The position numbers and the translations under genes were made by a program. A DNA stretch of 35,633 bases from a virus (lineage: Duplodnaviria; Heunggongvirae; Uroviricota; Caudoviricetes), in the IMG/VR virus record IMGVR_UViG_2541047595_000015; one strand, written 5' to 3'. This document shows positions 5,368-12,283 of this stretch, in pieces; positions within the stretch are counted from its first letter, which is position 1, and each line of letters opens with the position of its first letter. Under the pieces are notes generated by a model. The model had not been told where the DNA came from. It saw nothing but the letters and a program-made list of their open reading frames with translations, and made no database searches.

Positions 5368-6248
5368 ACACTCCTCGTCAGTATTCTGGCGGCCATTGCA
5401 CTTAATCCCGGAGACATGCGGTTGAATGCTGTTCCGACGGCGTTAAGCTGCCCGGAAACGGTATCCAGAGCACCTGCAATATTTCTTTTGTCCACACCAC
5501 TCAGCGCAGACTGTGCCTGCTGTACATACGTGGCTGCTTCGCTGGCTGTTCTGGCCAGACTGATGGCATCGGGCATGGATTCAGAGAGTGCGTTAAACGC
5601 CGGAACACTTTTCCCCAGAGCCCCGGAGATATTACCCAGTCCGCTCATCAGCCCCGGCACACGGGTCAGTGCGACAACGGGGTTATCCTTCATTTTCTGT
5701 GTCACTCGAACGGCGCTGATAGTGGTCTGGAGTACAGACTGCGCCTGTTTCGCATAGTTGACGCCGTTGCGGATGAACTGCGCCACCCCGGAAGGTGAAG
5801 GAATGGCACCGGAGACCGCCCCGACACCCGGGAGCTTCGTGCGTATTGCCGGTGGTTGCAGAGGATTTTTCGGGTCACCGGTGTATTCCCGGAGAGACAC
5901 GGTGGCACTGACAGCCAGCACGTTGCCGGTACTGTCAGTCTGCTCGCTGGTTGCAGTCACATCGGTAATCACGAACCAGCCGCGATAGTCACCGTTGCCG
6001 AAGACCAGCGCCAGTGCCTGATGGGCTTTCATGGCTGTTCGCAGTCTCGCCAGCTCCACATCGGGTACACAATAATGCTGATGGAAAACCAGAGTTATCT
6101 GGATTTCGTCCAGCCTGTCGCCGACGAACTGCAGGCCAGGCTTACCCCCGATGCGGGCATGCTCCGCATAATCGACGCCGAACGTGGCCTCGAAGCCGTC
6201 CCAGTAGGTAATCAGCTCAAACTCAATATCACCCAGTACGGCAAACAT
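5364..6248 (-). CDS. Tail protein, gpU-like / DNA-circularisation-like
   Basis: 294 aa; directly downstream of the tape measure gene as in P2 (T-U-D); the N-terminus resembles tail protein U. Assignment is positional plus weak similarity. Confidence 0.5.
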   Translation of the reverse strand: MFAVLGDIEFELITYWDGFEATFGVDYAEHARIGGKPGLQFVGDRLDEIQITLVFHQHYCVPDVELARLRTAMKAHQALALVFGNGDYRGWFVITDVTATSEQTDSTGNVLAVSATVSLREYTGDPKNPLQPPAIRTKLPGVGAVSGAIPSPSGVAQFIRNGVNYAKQAQSVLQTTISAVRVTQKMKDNPVVALTRVPGLMSGLGNISGALGKSVPAFNALSESMPDAISLARTASEAATYVQQAQSALSGVDKRNIAGALDTVSGQLNAVGTAFNRMSPGLSAMAARILTRSV

Positions 6249-9200
6249 CAGCGGTACTCCTTACGTTGTTTCTGAGCCAGCAGACGCTCCAGCATTTTTT
6301 CCAGCTCATGCAGACTCATATTCAGGGCACCAGTCAGTCCTGCAGGCGCTGTGGTTTCCCTGCCATTGAGGAAAAACTGAGGATTAAAGCTGACCTGGAT
6401 ACCACCAGACGTTCCACCGCCGGTTGCAGCTGCACCACGGCCTGAATATCCGGCAGCCAGGATTTCAGGCGAGGGGATACGGGGAACATCCGGTGTCATC
6501 TCATTTGCCAGACGTTGCCCTGGTAAAATCGATGCCCGGGTGGAGAGCGGAATAACGGGCATGGAAGACAAACTATTGATTACGGCTCCGATCGCATTTT
6601 TAGCAGACGACATAAACCCATTGATATCGGGCAACGGCATACTGAAGCGAACACCTGAAGTGTTATCCCGTATTTCTGGCCCCTGAATGCTCACGGGCAT
6701 TCTGGGGAGCAGTTCACTGGCCATTCGCTGCCCGGCCAGAGCTGCAAGCGGAGTGGTCCGCTGCAGGCCAATGGCGGCCCCCTGCGCGATATTGTCACCA
6801 AAGCCCATAAACACGCGGCTCGGCGAATGAATGCCCAGCTTTTCGCTGAACCAGCCACTGATGCTGTCACCCATTCCGGTTACACTGGATTTGAGCGACT
6901 CCCATTTGTTTTTGATACCGTTAATCAGACCGTCGACAAGATGGCCACCGAAGTCGGTGAACTTTGCCGGCAGATCAACACCAAGATATTTCAGCGCAGC
7001 TGCAAAGGCTTTATAGAGCAGACCTGCCGGCGACCAGTTAATCAGCAGCTTACCAGTTCCCGCGATACCGCCGTTAAAGGCTTCCTGAATGTCAGCCCAG
7101 CACTGTTTAAACCAGCTACTGATGCTGTCACCCATTCCGGTTACACTGGATTTGAGCGACCCCCATTTGTTTTTGATACCGTTAATCAGACCGTCGATAA
7201 GATGGCCACCGAAGTCGGTGAACTTTGCCGGCAGAGCAACGCCGAAATATTTCAGCGCAGCCGCAAAGGCTTTATAGAGCAGGCCTGCCGGCGACCAGTT
7301 AATCAGCAACTTACCAATTCCCACAATTCCGCCGTTAAAGGCTTCCTGAATGTCAGCCCAGCGCTGTTTAAACCAGCTACTGATGCTGTCACCCATTCCG
7401 GTTACACTGGATTTGAGCGACCCCCATTTGCTTTTGATACCGTTAATCAGACCGTCGATAAGATGGCCACCGAAGTCGGTGAACTTTGCCGGCAGAGCAA
7501 CGCCGAAATATTTCAGCGCAGCCGCAAAGGCTTTATAGAGCAGGCCTGCCGGCGACCAGTTAATCAGCAACTTACCAATTCCCACAATGCCGCCGTTAAA
7601 GGCTTCCTGAATGTCAGCCCAGCGCTGTTTAAACCAACCACTGACAGCCCCCCAGTTGCGGTAGATAAGGTAAGCTGCTGTCGCGACAGCGGTGATAACG
7701 AGACCGATGGGATTCATCATCAGCGCTCGCCCAATCCAGAGAACGGCACGTGCAGCGCTCATAAAACCGCGAACGAGGCTGCCCGCCAGAACTTTGCTGA
7801 GTTTCAGTCCTCCGCTGGTCAGTCGGCTGAATCCAGTGACAAGCCAGCGTAATTTGCCACCTTCTCCGAGTGCGGTAGTCAGTCGATGCCAGTTGGTCCG
7901 GAGTAAAACAGTAGTTTTCCAGACGTTCACAAAGGGGGAAATAAGGAGATTCAGCCCCAGTTTGAGACCAATAGTCGCTATCTTAATCGCAAGGAGCGCA
8001 CTGATGAGCTTAAAAGCCCCACTGACAAATTGCGGGTGAGTCGCTACCCAGTGTTTTGTCCCCTGAATGAGTGGGAGCAGTTCCTGAGTCAGAGAAATAA
8101 AAGATGGAGCTAATTGATCGCCCAGCGTAATTGCCAGATCGCGACTGCTGACCATAAGTGTTTTAGTGGCTTCAAGGGGAGATTTCAGCCGCTGATCATA
8201 AGCACTGGCAAGCAAATCGTTATCCGCAGCCCTGAGAGCACCGGCACGGATCTCTCGATATCTGTCCATGTTGGCCAGCATCGGGCGGATAAATGCCATG
8301 ACCTGCATATCCGCGAACATATCGCCCAGACCAAAGTTTTTCGCCAGAGCCTGAAGTGCCTCATCTCTTGCCGTATCATTCTTTATTTTCATGGCTGATT
8401 TGAAGCCGGCCAGCGCTTCGGGGCTTTTGGCATTGAGGTAACGTTCTATAACACTCAACATCCCTTCAATCGGAGAGATCCCCGCAGCTTTATAACTCGC
8501 AATAGATCCCTGCAAATCAATACCCAGATCAGCAAACTGTTTCTGAGTATCGCGGGCAAAAATTTTGGTAAGAAAGTTTTTAAAATTATTGGCTGCTTCG
8601 TCGGTGGAACCTGCACCGATTTTTGCTATCTGGAGACTGGCCCCGATTTCAGCAACAGCCTCTTTTCCACTGGCAAGACCCGCCATCATTGGGGCCAGGG
8701 ACTGCATCCACTTGACCTGATCCGGGATTTCAAATGACCCCTGGTCACCGGCATAAGCCATAATATTCTGAACGGCACCAAAATCTCTGGCCGCACCTTT
8801 CAGGGAGTTTTGCCAGACTGCGGCCACTTTTGCCCAGTCCTGAGCAGACGTGCGTGTTGCCGTTGCCGCGCGGGCAATATCCGGCATCAGAAAACCGATA
8901 TCTGACACATTATCAATATTGTCGCTGATGAGTGAACCCACCGCCTCCTGCAGCTCATCCTGATACTGATTGTATTTAAGCGCCCAGCCTTTTATCTGTC
9001 CGGCAAGTGCATCCCGCGTTTTATTGTCATATTTTGCGGTGATCGACATATCAATCATTTTGTCCTGAAAAGACATGGACTGCTGAACGGCAGGGGAAAC
9101 CGTATGATAAACAGTCTGTGCCATGCCATACGCTTCAATCCCCTGACCATACAGCGCCATGCGGTTAGCTTTCAGCGCATCACTGGTAGCGGATGCCGCT

Positions 9201-9460
9201 GACAGACGGCGCTGCTGGCGCTCAATTTGCTCCATGGTGCGGCTTACCCGCAGCAGCTCGCTGTTGAGATGCTGCATCCGGGAAGAACCCAGTTGACCAT
9301 AACGTTCTGTTGCACGGGTTAAAGCGTTCTGACGTTCCTGCAGGCGGCGTGAGGTATCGCTCAGGGAATCAAGCGCACGGCGGGTACCGCTCATTGCAGA
9401 ACGGAATGTGCTGCCAATCATCCCGCCGATAACAACGCCGACTGAAAACTGTCCCGACAT
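6248..9460 (-). CDS. Tail tape measure protein
   Basis: 1070 aa; largest gene of the tail module, after the chaperone pair; GGAGG 10 nt upstream of the ATG at 9460; contains three tandem 87-aa repeats. Confidence 0.85.
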   Translation of the reverse strand: MSGQFSVGVVIGGMIGSTFRSAMSGTRRALDSLSDTSRRLQERQNALTRATERYGQLGSSRMQHLNSELLRVSRTMEQIERQQRRLSAASATSDALKANRMALYGQGIEAYGMAQTVYHTVSPAVQQSMSFQDKMIDMSITAKYDNKTRDALAGQIKGWALKYNQYQDELQEAVGSLISDNIDNVSDIGFLMPDIARAATATRTSAQDWAKVAAVWQNSLKGAARDFGAVQNIMAYAGDQGSFEIPDQVKWMQSLAPMMAGLASGKEAVAEIGASLQIAKIGAGSTDEAANNFKNFLTKIFARDTQKQFADLGIDLQGSIASYKAAGISPIEGMLSVIERYLNAKSPEALAGFKSAMKIKNDTARDEALQALAKNFGLGDMFADMQVMAFIRPMLANMDRYREIRAGALRAADNDLLASAYDQRLKSPLEATKTLMVSSRDLAITLGDQLAPSFISLTQELLPLIQGTKHWVATHPQFVSGAFKLISALLAIKIATIGLKLGLNLLISPFVNVWKTTVLLRTNWHRLTTALGEGGKLRWLVTGFSRLTSGGLKLSKVLAGSLVRGFMSAARAVLWIGRALMMNPIGLVITAVATAAYLIYRNWGAVSGWFKQRWADIQEAFNGGIVGIGKLLINWSPAGLLYKAFAAALKYFGVALPAKFTDFGGHLIDGLINGIKSKWGSLKSSVTGMGDSISSWFKQRWADIQEAFNGGIVGIGKLLINWSPAGLLYKAFAAALKYFGVALPAKFTDFGGHLIDGLINGIKNKWGSLKSSVTGMGDSISSWFKQCWADIQEAFNGGIAGTGKLLINWSPAGLLYKAFAAALKYLGVDLPAKFTDFGGHLVDGLINGIKNKWESLKSSVTGMGDSISGWFSEKLGIHSPSRVFMGFGDNIAQGAAIGLQRTTPLAALAGQRMASELLPRMPVSIQGPEIRDNTSGVRFSMPLPDINGFMSSAKNAIGAVINSLSSMPVIPLSTRASILPGQRLANEMTPDVPRIPSPEILAAGYSGRGAAATGGGTSGGIQVSFNPQFFLNGRETTAPAGLTGALNMSLHELEKMLERLLAQKQRKEYR
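6850..7636. repeat. Three tandem ~261-bp repeats inside the tape measure gene
   Basis: The segment WFKQRWADIQEAFNGGIVGIGKLLINWSPAGLLYKAFAAALKYFGVALPAKFTDFGGHLIDGLINGIK.KWGSLKSSVTGMGDSIS occurs three times in the TMP. Antisense plus-strand ORFs at 6831, 7089 and 7350 are spaced 258-261 nt apart with near-identical translations. Confidence 0.85.
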
Positions 9461-9535
9461 AGTGGTTAACCTCCGGGGAAGGTGAAAAGACGTGAGGGGA
9501 TAACGCAGAACAGCCGCTACTGGCGGCTGTCTGTA

Positions 9536-9793
9536 CTATGATTTGTCGCCGTACTCGCTTTTGATTTGCTCTTCAGCCTGCTCCAGCCACATCTCCAGAT
9601 CGTCAGTATCGAGGGCATCAATCTCCCCCGGCTGAAACCGGAACCATCTCGCCAGCAGCCCCTGCGCCTGCGTCAGCGCCCTGGTTGCTCTCACCCATCC
9701 CCGTGATGAGCTGAAATCGTTTCTGTAACTGCAGGTAATCAGCCAGATCCATATTGTCGAGATCTTCCGGGAGAAGACCAGTACTGCGGGCAA
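9536..9793 (-). CDS. Overlapping second-frame ORF, likely the frameshift extension of the tail assembly chaperone
   Basis: ORF in another frame overlapping the 3' part of the chaperone ORF, with an acidic C-terminus (EIDALDTDDLEMWLEQAEEQIKSEYGDKS). This is the conserved two-frame arrangement upstream of tape measure genes. Confidence 0.45.
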   Translation of the reverse strand: MPAVLVFSRKISTIWIWLITCSYRNDFSSSRGWVRATRALTQAQGLLARWFRFQPGEIDALDTDDLEMWLEQAEEQIKSEYGDKS

Positions 9794-9953
9794 TCAGCGG
9801 TTCGTCCCAGTCTGCCGGGTTTTTGCTGATTTTGCGCACCTGCTTCAGGTCTTTTACCGTCAGGCGTTTCAGTTCAACCAGCTCAATTCTGGTGCCTGCA
9901 GCAGTGGTGAAGGGATAAGACAATTTAAAAGTATCGGATGGGGTCTGTGACAT
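9618..9953 (-). CDS. Tail assembly chaperone (P2 gpE-like), upstream frame
   Basis: 111 aa; GGAG upstream of the ATG at 9953; position between tube and tape measure. Confidence 0.6.
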   Translation of the reverse strand: MSQTPSDTFKLSYPFTTAAGTRIELVELKRLTVKDLKQVRKISKNPADWDEPLIARSTGLLPEDLDNMDLADYLQLQKRFQLITGMGESNQGADAGAGAAGEMVPVSAGGD

Positions 9954-10050
9954 GATTGTGCTCCTGTGTAAGTTCAGGGCAGTATGTCGGGAGAAGCGCG
10001 TGACGGATATTAAAGGAGATTAAGAAGAAGGGGCCGGAGCCCCTGTGATG

Positions 10051-10332
10051 TCAGCAAGTGCGAAACCCCTTGCAGTTACGCAGGAAAGCGATGAGAAGCG
10101 TCTTTCCCTCAGATTTGCCGATGCCGGAGAACCAGTGGTCGGGAGGCTCCCATGCTTCAATCAAATCCGCCAGTTTGCGGGCCTTTGAACGTGTGCAGTC
10201 AATCGGGTCATTGGTTTTACGGGTATTAAAAAGGGTTTCCACCCCCGGAATATCAAGGAGGGTAAACCACGTACCATTTGACATGCCCAGTGCCGCACAT
10301 CGTCCTCCTTTATCCGTCAGTTCAACACTCAC
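10051..10332 (-). CDS. Hypothetical protein (GTG start) between tube and chaperone genes
   Basis: 93-aa ORF starting at a GTG 2 nt after the tube stop, followed by a GC hairpin (10030-10043). No recognisable motif; the coding call is weak. Confidence 0.3.
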   Translation of the reverse strand: MSVELTDKGGRCAALGMSNGTWFTLLDIPGVETLFNTRKTNDPIDCTRSKARKLADLIEAWEPPDHWFSGIGKSEGKTLLIAFLRNCKGFRTC

Positions 10333-10334
10333 CG

Positions 10335-10856
10335 TCAGCCCCCGATATTGATACGGTAGTCAGTCAGTTGATCAACACCGCCGACCCGGAAGATGTTGGC
10401 CAGATAGTCCAGTTGCAGCAGCTCTTCACCATCCAGTACCTGTCTGATATACGTGCAGGTGAAGCTACTGGAGAACTCGGCGTTCTCGTGCTGTTTGAAC
10501 GTCCCCAGCGGGTTCTTCTTGAACATAATCGTCAGGAAGGTGACCAGCGGGATTTCGTCAATCAGCCCCTGCGAGCTGTAGCGCTGGACGCTGGAACGAC
10601 ACTGCAGTGCCAGCGACCTGTACGGGTTCGCGGCAGACAGCATCGCATCGCGGTAAAAGCTGTTCCATTTGATTTCGCCTTCCAGCTTGTCAAAACCAGC
10701 CGGGAGTTCCACCTTACCCACCATCCCCAGCGCCTTGTGTTCCTGCATAATCATGGAGACATCGGGGAGTTTGACTTCCTCAGCCCGTCCCAGCAGGTTA
10801 GTACCATCCAGATAGATGTTGGCATTCGTGATGCGGTTTATCTCAATCTTTGACAT
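10335..10856 (-). CDS. Tail tube protein (P2 FII-like)
   Basis: 173 aa, directly downstream of the sheath gene; size and sequence character of the major tube protein. Confidence 0.8.
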   Translation of the reverse strand: MSKIEINRITNANIYLDGTNLLGRAEEVKLPDVSMIMQEHKALGMVGKVELPAGFDKLEGEIKWNSFYRDAMLSAANPYRSLALQCRSSVQRYSSQGLIDEIPLVTFLTIMFKKNPLGTFKQHENAEFSSSFTCTYIRQVLDGEELLQLDYLANIFRVGGVDQLTDYRINIGG

Positions 10857-12283
10857 CAGTTGCCCCCTTTCAGGGTTAACAGGTATTCCGAGGTGATCTC
10901 AGTCTCAAACGTCAGTCGCTCCAGCGGCGGTGGTGGCGTATATTTGTAGCTCAGCAACAGGTGCCCGGCGGCCAGCTCCGTCTCCGGATTGCGGGCCGGA
11001 TCAAACCAGCAACGGAAGCCCAGTACCGCACCATCACCAGTCATTTTGCGACCGTAGGCGTTGACCGACTCCGTCAGTGCATCAATCAGCGCCTGAGTAA
11101 TCGGCATGTCGATGTACTGCTGGCTGAAATAACGAATGGACTCGTTGATCACATCACCGGTGCGGCGAACGTTCTCAAAGTTACGCATATGGGTGACCGT
11201 TGGCCATGCTGCCGTCCGGTTACCCCACAGACGAAGGCCGCTGCCGTAACTGCTGAATACCGTGGTGATCCCCTGTTCGTTAAGCAGGTTCACCTCACTC
11301 TGCGGGTCATCAATCATCGCGGACAGCTGGCGCTCCACGCCGGTGATCCCCAGAATCTCCTGATTGGAGGATGACCACCAGTAGCCCTTGTCCAGATCGA
11401 CTCTGGCACGCAGACCTGCTGCACGCTGGCTGAGCGGCTCCAGACGCTCTGTGTTTGTCACCGGGTCATATACCTTCACATGCGGATAGCACAGACGGAC
11501 GCGGTCGGAGCTGGTATTGAAGTTGATGGTGCCTTCCGGGCCACGACCTGCCAGAGCCTGTGCAAAGGTGGTACCGACAGGCGCATCAATGTAGGTTACC
11601 GCGCCCAGCTTCTCTGCCATGGCGATAAGCTCAACTGCGACACTCTTCTGGGTGCAGAACACCGGCGCAATCAGAATTTTGGCGAAATAGCCGTACAGGT
11701 TGAAGCTGTCGTTAAGCAGCTTCATGCCGGTTCGGTTTCCGGCGCTGTTCACCCCGCCGATGATGTCCGCCGCAGCCACCTTCGACGGGTCCGCGTACTC
11801 ATAGCTCACCTTCACGCTGCCACCGGCCTCAATAGCCTTGCCCAGGTTCGTGAGCACACCCGCCTGCGCATCAACACGGTAGTCCGTGTTCGCCGTGTGG
11901 GTGGTGCTGCCTTCACTGTTTTTCACCACCACATTAGCGACAACCGGATGCGCCAGTCTGGCCTGCCCTGTCGATTTGTCAAAGGTAACCACCTCATCCT
12001 CGATCGCCGTTTTATGTTTCGCCGGGTCGAGGACGTTAATGACCAGAACGGTGCCTGCACCATGGTCATAAATCGCATCCAGCGCCTGCGGAATGGTAAA
12101 GCCGGTGAACTGGCTGCCAAATGCCGCTGCGTCTTTCTCAGACAGGCACTGTACCAGCGTATTGACATCCCCCATCGGGGCGGTACCAATCAGGCCAATA
12201 ACGGCAGATTTCACCGTTTTAACCGGGCGGGCTCCGTTTTCCACCTCAATGGTTTCGGGACCATGCAGATAGTTAGCTGCCAT
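10856..12283 (-). CDS. Contractile tail sheath protein (P2 FI / Mu L-like)
   Basis: 475 aa; position and size; sheath-tube gene pair. Confidence 0.85.
   Translation of the reverse strand: MAANYLHGPETIEVENGARPVKTVKSAVIGLIGTAPMGDVNTLVQCLSEKDAAAFGSQFTGFTIPQALDAIYDHGAGTVLVINVLDPAKHKTAIEDEVVTFDKSTGQARLAHPVVANVVVKNSEGSTTHTANTDYRVDAQAGVLTNLGKAIEAGGSVKVSYEYADPSKVAAADIIGGVNSAGNRTGMKLLNDSFNLYGYFAKILIAPVFCTQKSVAVELIAMAEKLGAVTYIDAPVGTTFAQALAGRGPEGTINFNTSSDRVRLCYPHVKVYDPVTNTERLEPLSQRAAGLRARVDLDKGYWWSSSNQEILGITGVERQLSAMIDDPQSEVNLLNEQGITTVFSSYGSGLRLWGNRTAAWPTVTHMRNFENVRRTGDVINESIRYFSQQYIDMPITQALIDALTESVNAYGRKMTGDGAVLGFRCWFDPARNPETELAAGHLLLSYKYTPPPPLERLTFETEITSEYLLTLKGGN

Follow-up and report, generated by a model that had tools for sequence, protein, structure and literature searches.

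Programmed frameshifting that joins a tail assembly chaperone to an extension in another frame is known in phages in the -1, -2 and +1 directions, so the principle is not new. In phage lambda, an abundant short chaperone (gpG) and a rare frameshift fusion (gpGT) are encoded just upstream of the tape measure gene, and the shift is -1 at the heptamer G_GGA_AAG. In phage P2, gpE and the 142-aa E+E' protein are encoded between the tube and tape measure genes and consist of a Phage_TAC_7 domain followed, in E+E', by an E' segment; Pfam model PF06528 covers this frameshifted segment at aa 104-139, and the -1 shift takes place on a U6 run (G_UUU_UUU_G) at the Phe codon that ends the chaperone domain. 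For phage Mu, the GenBank record carries the note 'verified -2 translational frameshift', and that record, together with reviews and other papers citing Xu, Hendrix & Duda 2004, describes a slip of -2 on CGG_GGG_CGA about 19 codons past an FQ motif, with an efficiency of ~2.2%. An earlier note on the DNA analysed here had mentioned a -2 proposal for Mu-like phages, correctly by these sources. Its statement that non-canonical chaperone frameshifts are rare was too strong, as +1 shifts make up 350 of the 2,718 positive SEA-PHAGES-annotated cases.

Three further systems bear on the comparison. In influenza PA-X, experiments have established UUU_C as a +1 P-site slip motif, at which tRNA-Phe re-pairs from UUU to UUC within UCC_UUU_CGU (PMC3498833). 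In yeast Ty3, which shifts +1 at GCG_AGU_U and in which CGA can replace GCG, the P-site codon is read by inosine wobble and the incoming tRNA pairs in the +1 frame; Ty3 shifting involves a hungry codon in the A site and a stimulator on the 3' side, and does not need P-site re-pairing. In the record of phage BcepMu (AY539836), gp42 is a distinct 'G' gene that starts at an AUG of its own, and ribosomes are proposed to slip from it into gp43.

We analysed a 35,633-nt stretch of viral DNA (IMG/VR record IMGVR_UViG_2541047595_000015), referred to here as the window. It shares 99.8% identity with Escherichia phage PhiKM, a phage placed in Bcepmuvirus, and carries the tail module of a BcepMu-like transposable prophage. 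The tail genes at the locus lie on the minus strand in the order sheath, tube, small ORF, chaperone plus extension, and tape measure:

10856-12283, minus strand: sheath gene (Pfam PF04984 and PF17482), upstream of the tube gene
10335..10856, minus strand: tail tube gene (173 aa; Pfam Phage_tube, E=2.9e-53), upstream of the chaperone pair
10332-10051, minus strand: small ORF of 93 aa between tube and chaperone
9618..9953, minus strand: tail assembly chaperone, frame-0 product of 111 aa, equivalent to P2 gpE, Mu gp41 and lambda gpG
9536..9712, minus strand: extension, in the +1 frame after the proposed shift (58 aa plus the stop codon at 9538-9536; PHROG 8286, E=8e-34)
6248..9460, minus strand: tape measure protein gene (1070 aa; Pfam PhageMin_Tail, PHROG 28 'tail length tape measure protein'), downstream of the chaperone pair

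The 111-aa ORF matched Phage_TAC_7 (PF10109; described in Pfam as 'tail assembly chaperone proteins E, or 41 or 14') over aa 8-81 with E=5.5e-21 and 74.8 bits, compared to a cut-off of 25 bits; it belongs to PHROG 166 'tail protein' and is named 'phage tail assembly protein' in RefSeq. A second open frame on the same strand runs from 9793 to 9536 and overlaps the chaperone ORF by 173 nt. Near the end of the overlap, frame 0 reads GCC GGG GGA GAU UGA and the second frame CCG GGG GAG AUU, and this codon-by-codon reading places the second frame in +1 (equivalently -2) relative to the chaperone. The frame relation given in the earlier note is thus confirmed, and its description of a two-frame tail chaperone that needs a +1 or -2 shift, unlike the -1 of lambda G/GT and P2 E/E', is supported.

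The same relation holds widely. We collected ~190 related loci from IMG/VR, a set with one genome per species and a phage collection. In the first two scans, the extension lay in the +1 frame at 108 of 112 loci, and the four exceptions carried 1-nt deletions by which the frames are fused or broken, apparently the result of decay or of homopolymer errors. The third scan yielded 50 unique anchor contexts, 45 with the extension in the +1 frame, four with it in the -1 frame and one without a detected extension. The +1 arrangement spans E. coli, Salmonella, Brenneria, Lonsdalea, Ralstonia, Pseudomonas and Burkholderia, with chaperone identity down to 31%, and the counts below refer to 134 unique +1-frame sequences, from Enterobacterales to Burkholderia, which are related by descent and not phylogenetically independent. 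Among complete E. coli genomes, 641 of 5,426 (~12%) carry the chaperone/extension region, mostly at an identity of at least 99%, and in many of them the region is 100% identical. This recurrence indicates that the frame change is neither a sequencing error nor a one-off; the 1-nt error that the earlier note had considered, by which a canonical -1 pair might appear out of phase, does not account for it.

Fusion of chaperone residues 1-80 to the extension gives a predicted protein of 138 aa, which in translation reads ...LQKRF followed by SSSRGWVRATRALTQAQGLLARWFRFQPGEIDALDTDDLEMWLEQAEEQIKSEYGDKS. On this predicted fusion, PF06528 (Phage_P2_GpE) matched aa 100-132 over the full model with E=0.0015 and 18.4 bits, compared to a 23-bit cut-off; the same model matched 8 of 12 diverse family members, with a best E of 6e-6, and hhalign aligned the extension profile to P2 E' with E=1.9e-4 and a probability of 47%. 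The matched segment is:

9557..9655, minus strand: conserved E'-like domain of the extension (LARWFRFQPGEIDALDTDDLEMWLEQAEEQIKS), from PF06528 and hhalign against P2 E'

By profile similarity, the extension is probably homologous to P2 E'. With both modules apparently homologous to those of P2, the locus has the P2 E/E+E' design, joined through the opposite frame.

Databases carry this arrangement incompletely. PhiKM and RefSeq annotate the 111-aa chaperone alone and leave the extension out, and in other NCBI records the extension is a protein by itself, 39-52 aa long, with inconsistent starts and the name 'GpE family phage tail protein', suggesting that gene callers take whichever start codon is available. 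Neither the predicted 138-aa +1 fusion nor a 139-aa -2 fusion was present among ~15 billion deposited proteins.

To place the shift, we determined for each locus the permitted window, which begins after the last +1-frame stop and ends before the first frame-0 stop, and anchored the loci on the invariant Phe that ends the chaperone domain. The resulting features of the window are:

9693..9724, minus strand: intersection of the permitted shift windows (32 nt; -8 to +23 from the first U of UUU)
9713..9719, minus strand: proposed +1 shift site CGA_UUU_C (Arg79 CGA, 9719-9717; anchor Phe80 UUU, 9716-9714; C, 9713)

The lower bound of the intersection is set by +1-frame stops ending at -9 in seven loci and the upper bound by frame-0 stops at +24 in four. 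Within these 32 nt, the sole shared feature is UUU followed by C, 27 codons upstream of the frame-0 stop in the case of CGA_UUU_C in the window. The alignment with related phages that the earlier note had recommended for finding a conserved slippery site yields this candidate: UUU_C was present at the anchor in 134 of 134 unique +1-frame sequences, compared to baseline TTT shares among Phe codons of 51% in enteric loci and 22% in Burkholderia/Pseudomonas loci. At the anchor, the -1-frame relatives (Pasteurella phage AFS-2018a and four unique sequences found in the viral scan) have UUU_A, UUG or UUA, or no Phe at all, in place of UUU_C; in these relatives the lambda heptamer G_GGA_AAG occurs a few codons further downstream.

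Conservation at the site is nucleotide-level. In 78 unique sequences of the 'RF' clade, Arg79 was CGA and Phe80 was UUU without a single exception and with zero synonymous variation, whereas all other conserved degenerate codon columns had synonymous variation of 0.1-1.9 bits. CGA makes up ~9.5% of Arg codons in these loci and is absent from the one further conserved Arg column; in the remaining conserved Phe column, 41 TTC and 32 TTT were counted. Stop codons in the +1 frame occurred at 0.052 per codon over the 74 codons upstream of the anchor, the nearest four codons away, and downstream of the anchor none occurred for 53-78 codons. The frame-0 tail past Phe80 is of low complexity and ranges from 7 to 35 aa among relatives, suggesting that the functional chaperone domain ends at about the proposed shift site. 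The +1 frame is weakly constrained for ~12 codons past UUU_C, where ACN Thr codons vary freely and give L, R, Q or P in the +1 frame; with so linker-like a stretch, synonymous-site analysis alone cannot pin the junction.

As an amino acid, too, Phe80 is conserved in the chaperone domain. Its conservation is thus partly a protein-level effect, which leaves the exclusive use of UUU, or of CGA before it, still to be explained. We also considered AAA_CGA as a site, combining a slippery tRNA-Lys with a slow CGA codon, and rejected it because the codon 5' of CGA varies among relatives (CGU, GAC, GAG, ACC).

These patterns point to a +1 programmed frameshift at CGA_UUU_C (9719-9713), a reading of site and direction together that we regard as likely; that some programmed shift yields a chaperone-extension fusion is, on the same comparative evidence, very likely. 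The majority of ribosomes would stay in frame 0 and make the 111-aa chaperone, and a small fraction would shift +1 at CGA_UUU_C. In one route, peptidyl-tRNA-Phe with its GAA anticodon, held on the P-site UUU by wobble pairing, would re-pair with the overlapping and better-matched UUC; alternatively, Phe-tRNA could enter on UUC out of frame while an I:A-wobble-paired tRNA-Arg occupies CGA. Both routes would give an identical protein, as the ribosome would read the +1 frame through to the stop at 9538-9536 and produce the 138-aa fusion of the chaperone domain and the 58-aa extension. If the two products work as in lambda G/GT and P2 E/E+E', the shorter one would coat the tape measure protein and the rare fusion would tie it to the tube protein, starting tail polymerisation.

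Several observations bear on the direction and the codons involved. A +1 re-pairing from UUU lands on UUC in every +1-frame relative. The codon two bases back from UUU is GAU, CCU or UGU in nearly all relatives (GAU in the window), which makes -2 re-pairing impossible in nearly all of them, and the direction is thus most likely +1 rather than the -2 of Mu. An E. coli cell-free assay places UUU among the P-site codons most prone to shifting (bioRxiv 10.1101/2025.10.02.679949), and CGA belongs to the small set of codons that, in the P site, allow Ty3-type +1 shifting, via I:A wobble (PMC5009743); we infer that this wobble may be the rationale for the invariant CGA. The predicted fold of 9730-9600 was no better than that of shuffled sequences (z=-0.56), no SD-like stimulator was seen by eye in the upstream CUG CAG UUA CAG AAA CGA, and the zero-frame A-site codon in the window is CAG, which is not rare. 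Such a result of the searches for a downstream RNA structure and an SD-like stimulator is compatible with the few-percent efficiency typical of tail-chaperone systems.

Compared to the described systems, the locus is closest to P2 in its modules and its position between the tube and tape measure genes; the predicted fusion, at 138 aa, is similar in size to the 142-aa P2 E+E', and both shifts fall at the Phe codon ending the chaperone domain. P2, however, shifts -1 on its U6 run, whereas the extension in the window is in +1 and CGA_UUU_C contains no U6 run. The window resembles Mu, according to the Mu record and the papers cited above, in coming from a Mu-like transposable myovirus, in having the extension in the +1/-2 frame and in having CGA as part of the site; it differs in that Mu has UUC at the homologous Phe and slips at a different position, on a G-run, and the family of the window has no conserved G-run within the permitted window. 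The chaperones differ as well: Mu gp41 matched PF23746 (Gp41_Mu; 8e-34) and only weakly Phage_TAC_7, whereas neither the window protein nor BcepMu gp41 matched Gp41_Mu. Lambda shares the plan of a short chaperone and a fusion encoded just upstream of the tape measure gene, and its heptamer recurs unchanged in some -1-frame relatives of the window family, but its shift is -1 and the window proteins have no detectable sequence similarity to gpG or gpT.

At the level of the site itself, the closest likeness is to PA-X, with which the locus shares the UUU_C tetranucleotide; Burkholderia/Pseudomonas relatives read UCC_UUU_CGC, UCC_UUU_CGU or GUG_UUU_CGG and are nearly identical to the PA-X site. 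PA-X is decoded by eukaryotic rather than bacterial ribosomes, and its CGN codon stands 3' of UUU, whereas in the window (CGA_UUU_CAG) it stands 5'. Ty3, likewise eukaryotic, shares the inosine-wobble codon and the possibility of +1 pairing by the incoming tRNA; tRNA-Phe re-pairing is also possible in the window, and we treat the likeness to Ty3 as a resemblance only. In BcepMu, gp41 is the chaperone homologue and gp42 the extension homologue, in the +1 frame of gp41, and the gp43 frame looks non-coding and has no counterpart in the window. We favour a gp41-gp42 +1 fusion at UCC_UUU_CGC, and on this comparison the deposited gp42/gp43 annotation is probably wrong.

Other explanations for the two frames have to be weighed against a +1 shift at CGA_UUU_C. 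The earlier note had proposed as slippery site a G-run just before the frame-0 stop:

9623..9631, minus strand: G-run CCGGGGGAG at +85 to +93 from the UUU anchor, encoding Pro-Gly-Glu within the extension domain

In the window alone, a Mu-like -2 or a +1 slip at this place would be feasible, because frame 0 is open across the five-G run and tRNA-Gly could re-pair +1 on GGG, and the verified -2 site of Mu is also a G-run. The relatives exclude it. In most of them frame 0 reads GAG GUG GUU UAG and ends 21 nt upstream of the G-run (+75), and in other lineages the frame-0 stop lies +24 to +51 past the conserved Phe codon, again before the run. The run itself varies (CCUGGGG, CCAGGGG or CCGAGUG) with Pro-Gly/Ser-Glu preserved in the +1 frame, and it lies 3' of both the conserved start of the extension domain and the conserved LLARWFRFQ motif. 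Because LLARWFRFQ shows +1-frame synonymous changes, this motif upstream of the run must already be read in +1, and a slip at the run would skip this strongly conserved part of the E'-like domain. The E. coli lineage also has a CAG to TAG variant at frame-0 codon 91 (+33; two loci, 42 contigs). This variant is synonymous in the +1 frame and ends frame 0 well upstream of the run; it would be tolerated only with an upstream shift and thus bounds the shift window in that lineage. Slippage on the G-run is accordingly very improbable. A programmed shift at some other, lineage-specific position of the overlap, or by -2, is an unlikely reading, even though the overlap of 173 nt in the window contains several short G-runs, the +1 frame just past UUU_C is weakly constrained and one relative (UUU_UUU_CGG) could re-pair at -2. 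The candidate motifs GGG_AUG_G (9707-9701) and GCA_GGG_GCU were rejected, as their G-runs are unconserved in relatives (GGG changes to GGC, GGU or AGC, and GCA_GGG to GGC); several such motifs fall outside the intersected window, and the codons two bases back from UUU speak against -2 in nearly all relatives.

The extension might also be translated without any frameshift, yielding the small 'GpE family' protein that appears in the annotation of RefSeq and other records. The many stand-alone NCBI entries of 39-52 aa, the AUG assigned to BcepMu gp42 and, in the window, a GUG after GGGGA (V34 of the open frame) that could serve as a start are in keeping with this reading, which we nevertheless judge quite unlikely. 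Candidate starts are conserved neither in position nor in presence: 110 of the 134 unique sequences lack an SD-preceded ATG or GTG before the domain, and the deposited starts and lengths disagree, so the conserved start of the downstream frame that the earlier note had named as evidence against a fusion was not found. Nor would independent translation explain why UUU_C and CGA are invariant, why UUU_C goes perfectly with the +1 frame and why that frame is free of stops from the anchor onwards, and in the homologous P2 system the E' domain is made solely as a fusion. Sequencing error, pseudogene decay or transcriptional slippage is scarcely credible as an explanation. The 1-nt deletions in four loci show that frames can be fused or broken in this way, but identity of the region across hundreds of complete genomes and conservation of the arrangement across bacterial orders effectively refute error or decay, and no A/T homopolymer long enough for transcriptional slippage occurs at a conserved position.

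A more specific pattern surrounds UUU_C. The 134 unique sequences fall into two flavours, CGA_UUU_C(A/U)N (n=92) and NNN_UUU_CGN (n=42), with none having both or neither; the second is the Burkholderia/Pseudomonas type, and the window, with CAG after UUU, belongs to the type with CGA before it. A weaker relative outside the filtered 134 reads GCG_UUU_CAG and has no adjacent CGN codon. We raise tentatively, as a rather doubtful possibility, that the bacterial +1 signal is bipartite and that an Arg CGN codon must adjoin UUU_C, either as CGA before it or as CGN after it. A preceding CGA, read by an inosine-containing tRNA-Arg, would then act through a Ty3-like 'special peptidyl-tRNA' effect, a following CGN would act as in influenza PA-X and amalgaviruses, and the two flavours would be interchangeable. 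To our knowledge, the Ty3-like effect is undocumented for natural bacterial genes. If the bipartite reading is true, a very common E. coli prophage would provide a natural and genetically tractable model of +1 shifting at UUU_C/CGN.

The biology of the locus is ordinary, but its site pattern is unusually clean and the annotation gap is widespread: the predicted fusion gene is missing both from the deposited phage records and from the annotation of a prophage that ~12% of complete E. coli genomes carry. Our literature search for UUU_C in a phage tail chaperone returned a general review and the PA-X paper and no description of such a site. The strict CGA_UUU_C / UUU_CGN pattern thus offers a testable natural +1 signal in E. 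coli for a motif that has so far been studied mainly in eukaryotic viruses. Homologous chaperones of one Pfam family appear to use -1 sites (U6 or G_GGA_AAG), a -2 site (Mu) and, as proposed here, +1 sites (UUU_C), which would make this chaperone family a clear example in which the outcome of recoding is conserved and its mechanism has been replaced.

In the published annotation of phage BcepMu (AY539836, positions 7603-8364), gp42 stands as a gene of its own, from which slippage into gp43 is proposed. The gp43 frame is GC-rich, encodes an Arg/Gly/Asp-rich sequence and overlaps the start of the tape measure gene, and a counterpart of gp43 is absent from the enteric relatives. The gp42/gp43 annotation is probably a misannotation of a +1 fusion of gp41 to gp42 at UCC_UUU_CGC.

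Among the related loci, two (L020 and L021), as well as protein P0005, carry a CAG-to-TAG variant at the position equivalent to 9683-9681 of the window. This change, which is found on 42 contigs, shortens the frame-0 chaperone to 90 aa and is synonymous in the +1 frame (ACC to ACU). Thus, the short chaperone appears not to need its 21 C-terminal residues.

Single-base deletions also occur in relatives, and the five-G run resembles an indel hotspot; in three of them (L076, L094, and L081) the site is equivalent to window positions 9625-9629. In the two Erwinia tracheiphila loci, L076 and L094, one base is missing at this run, which fuses the chaperone and extension in frame, and L081 has two 1-nt deletions at the equivalent position. 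In a fourth locus, from Apirhabdus (L099), a single nucleotide is deleted a few codons 5' of the Phe codon of the proposed shift site. The deletions in these four loci probably reflect prophage decay or homopolymer sequencing errors.

The locus filed under 'Arthrobacter sp. GMC3' (NZ_PJIO01000028.1) is an 8.2-kb low-coverage contig in an actinobacterial assembly, and its chaperone is 99% identical to that of the E. coli prophage in the window; its presence in this assembly is probably contamination. The record 'Klebsiella phage KP12' (OM835952) is classified in the Vequintavirinae, a taxon of large virulent phages. This 35-kb record (KP12_2) holds a BcepMu-like element and is therefore probably a co-purified prophage.

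Four features of the window lie around the chaperone gene or within the tape measure gene:

10051-10332, minus strand: 93-aa ORF between the tube and chaperone genes
10029-10044, minus strand: terminator-like hairpin AGGGGCUCCGGCCCCU, then UCUUCUUAAU, after the 93-aa ORF and before the chaperone start
9506-9533, minus strand: stem-loop ACAGCCGCC-AGUA-GCGGCUGU after the extension stop and before the tape measure start
6849-7644, minus strand: tandem repeat within the tape measure gene (6248-9460)

The 93-aa ORF matches PHROG 1239 (E=5e-48) and, weakly, the Pfam family DUF7739; P2 has no gene in the corresponding tube-chaperone interval. With hairpins at 10029-10044 and 9506-9533, the chaperone gene is flanked by stem-loops on both sides. 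The latter, immediately 3' of the extension stop codon, is stable (z=-3.5 versus shuffles) and is retained in relatives, with a different stem sequence in some (for example, GCAGCCGG...UGGCUGC) and a U-rich tail at its end in some. This hairpin could act as a partial terminator or RNA-stability element at the boundary between the chaperone and tape measure genes.

The tape measure repeat comprises 3.0 copies of a 261-bp unit with 96% identity, and the encoded protein accordingly contains three 87-aa repeats. In the record of Escherichia phage PhiKM, the tape measure gene holds a sequencing gap, and the Klebsiella KP12 record has a 'tail protein' of ~821 aa at the tape-measure position, compared to 1070 aa in the window. 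Repeat copy number in the tape measure gene may therefore vary, and tail length may vary with it.
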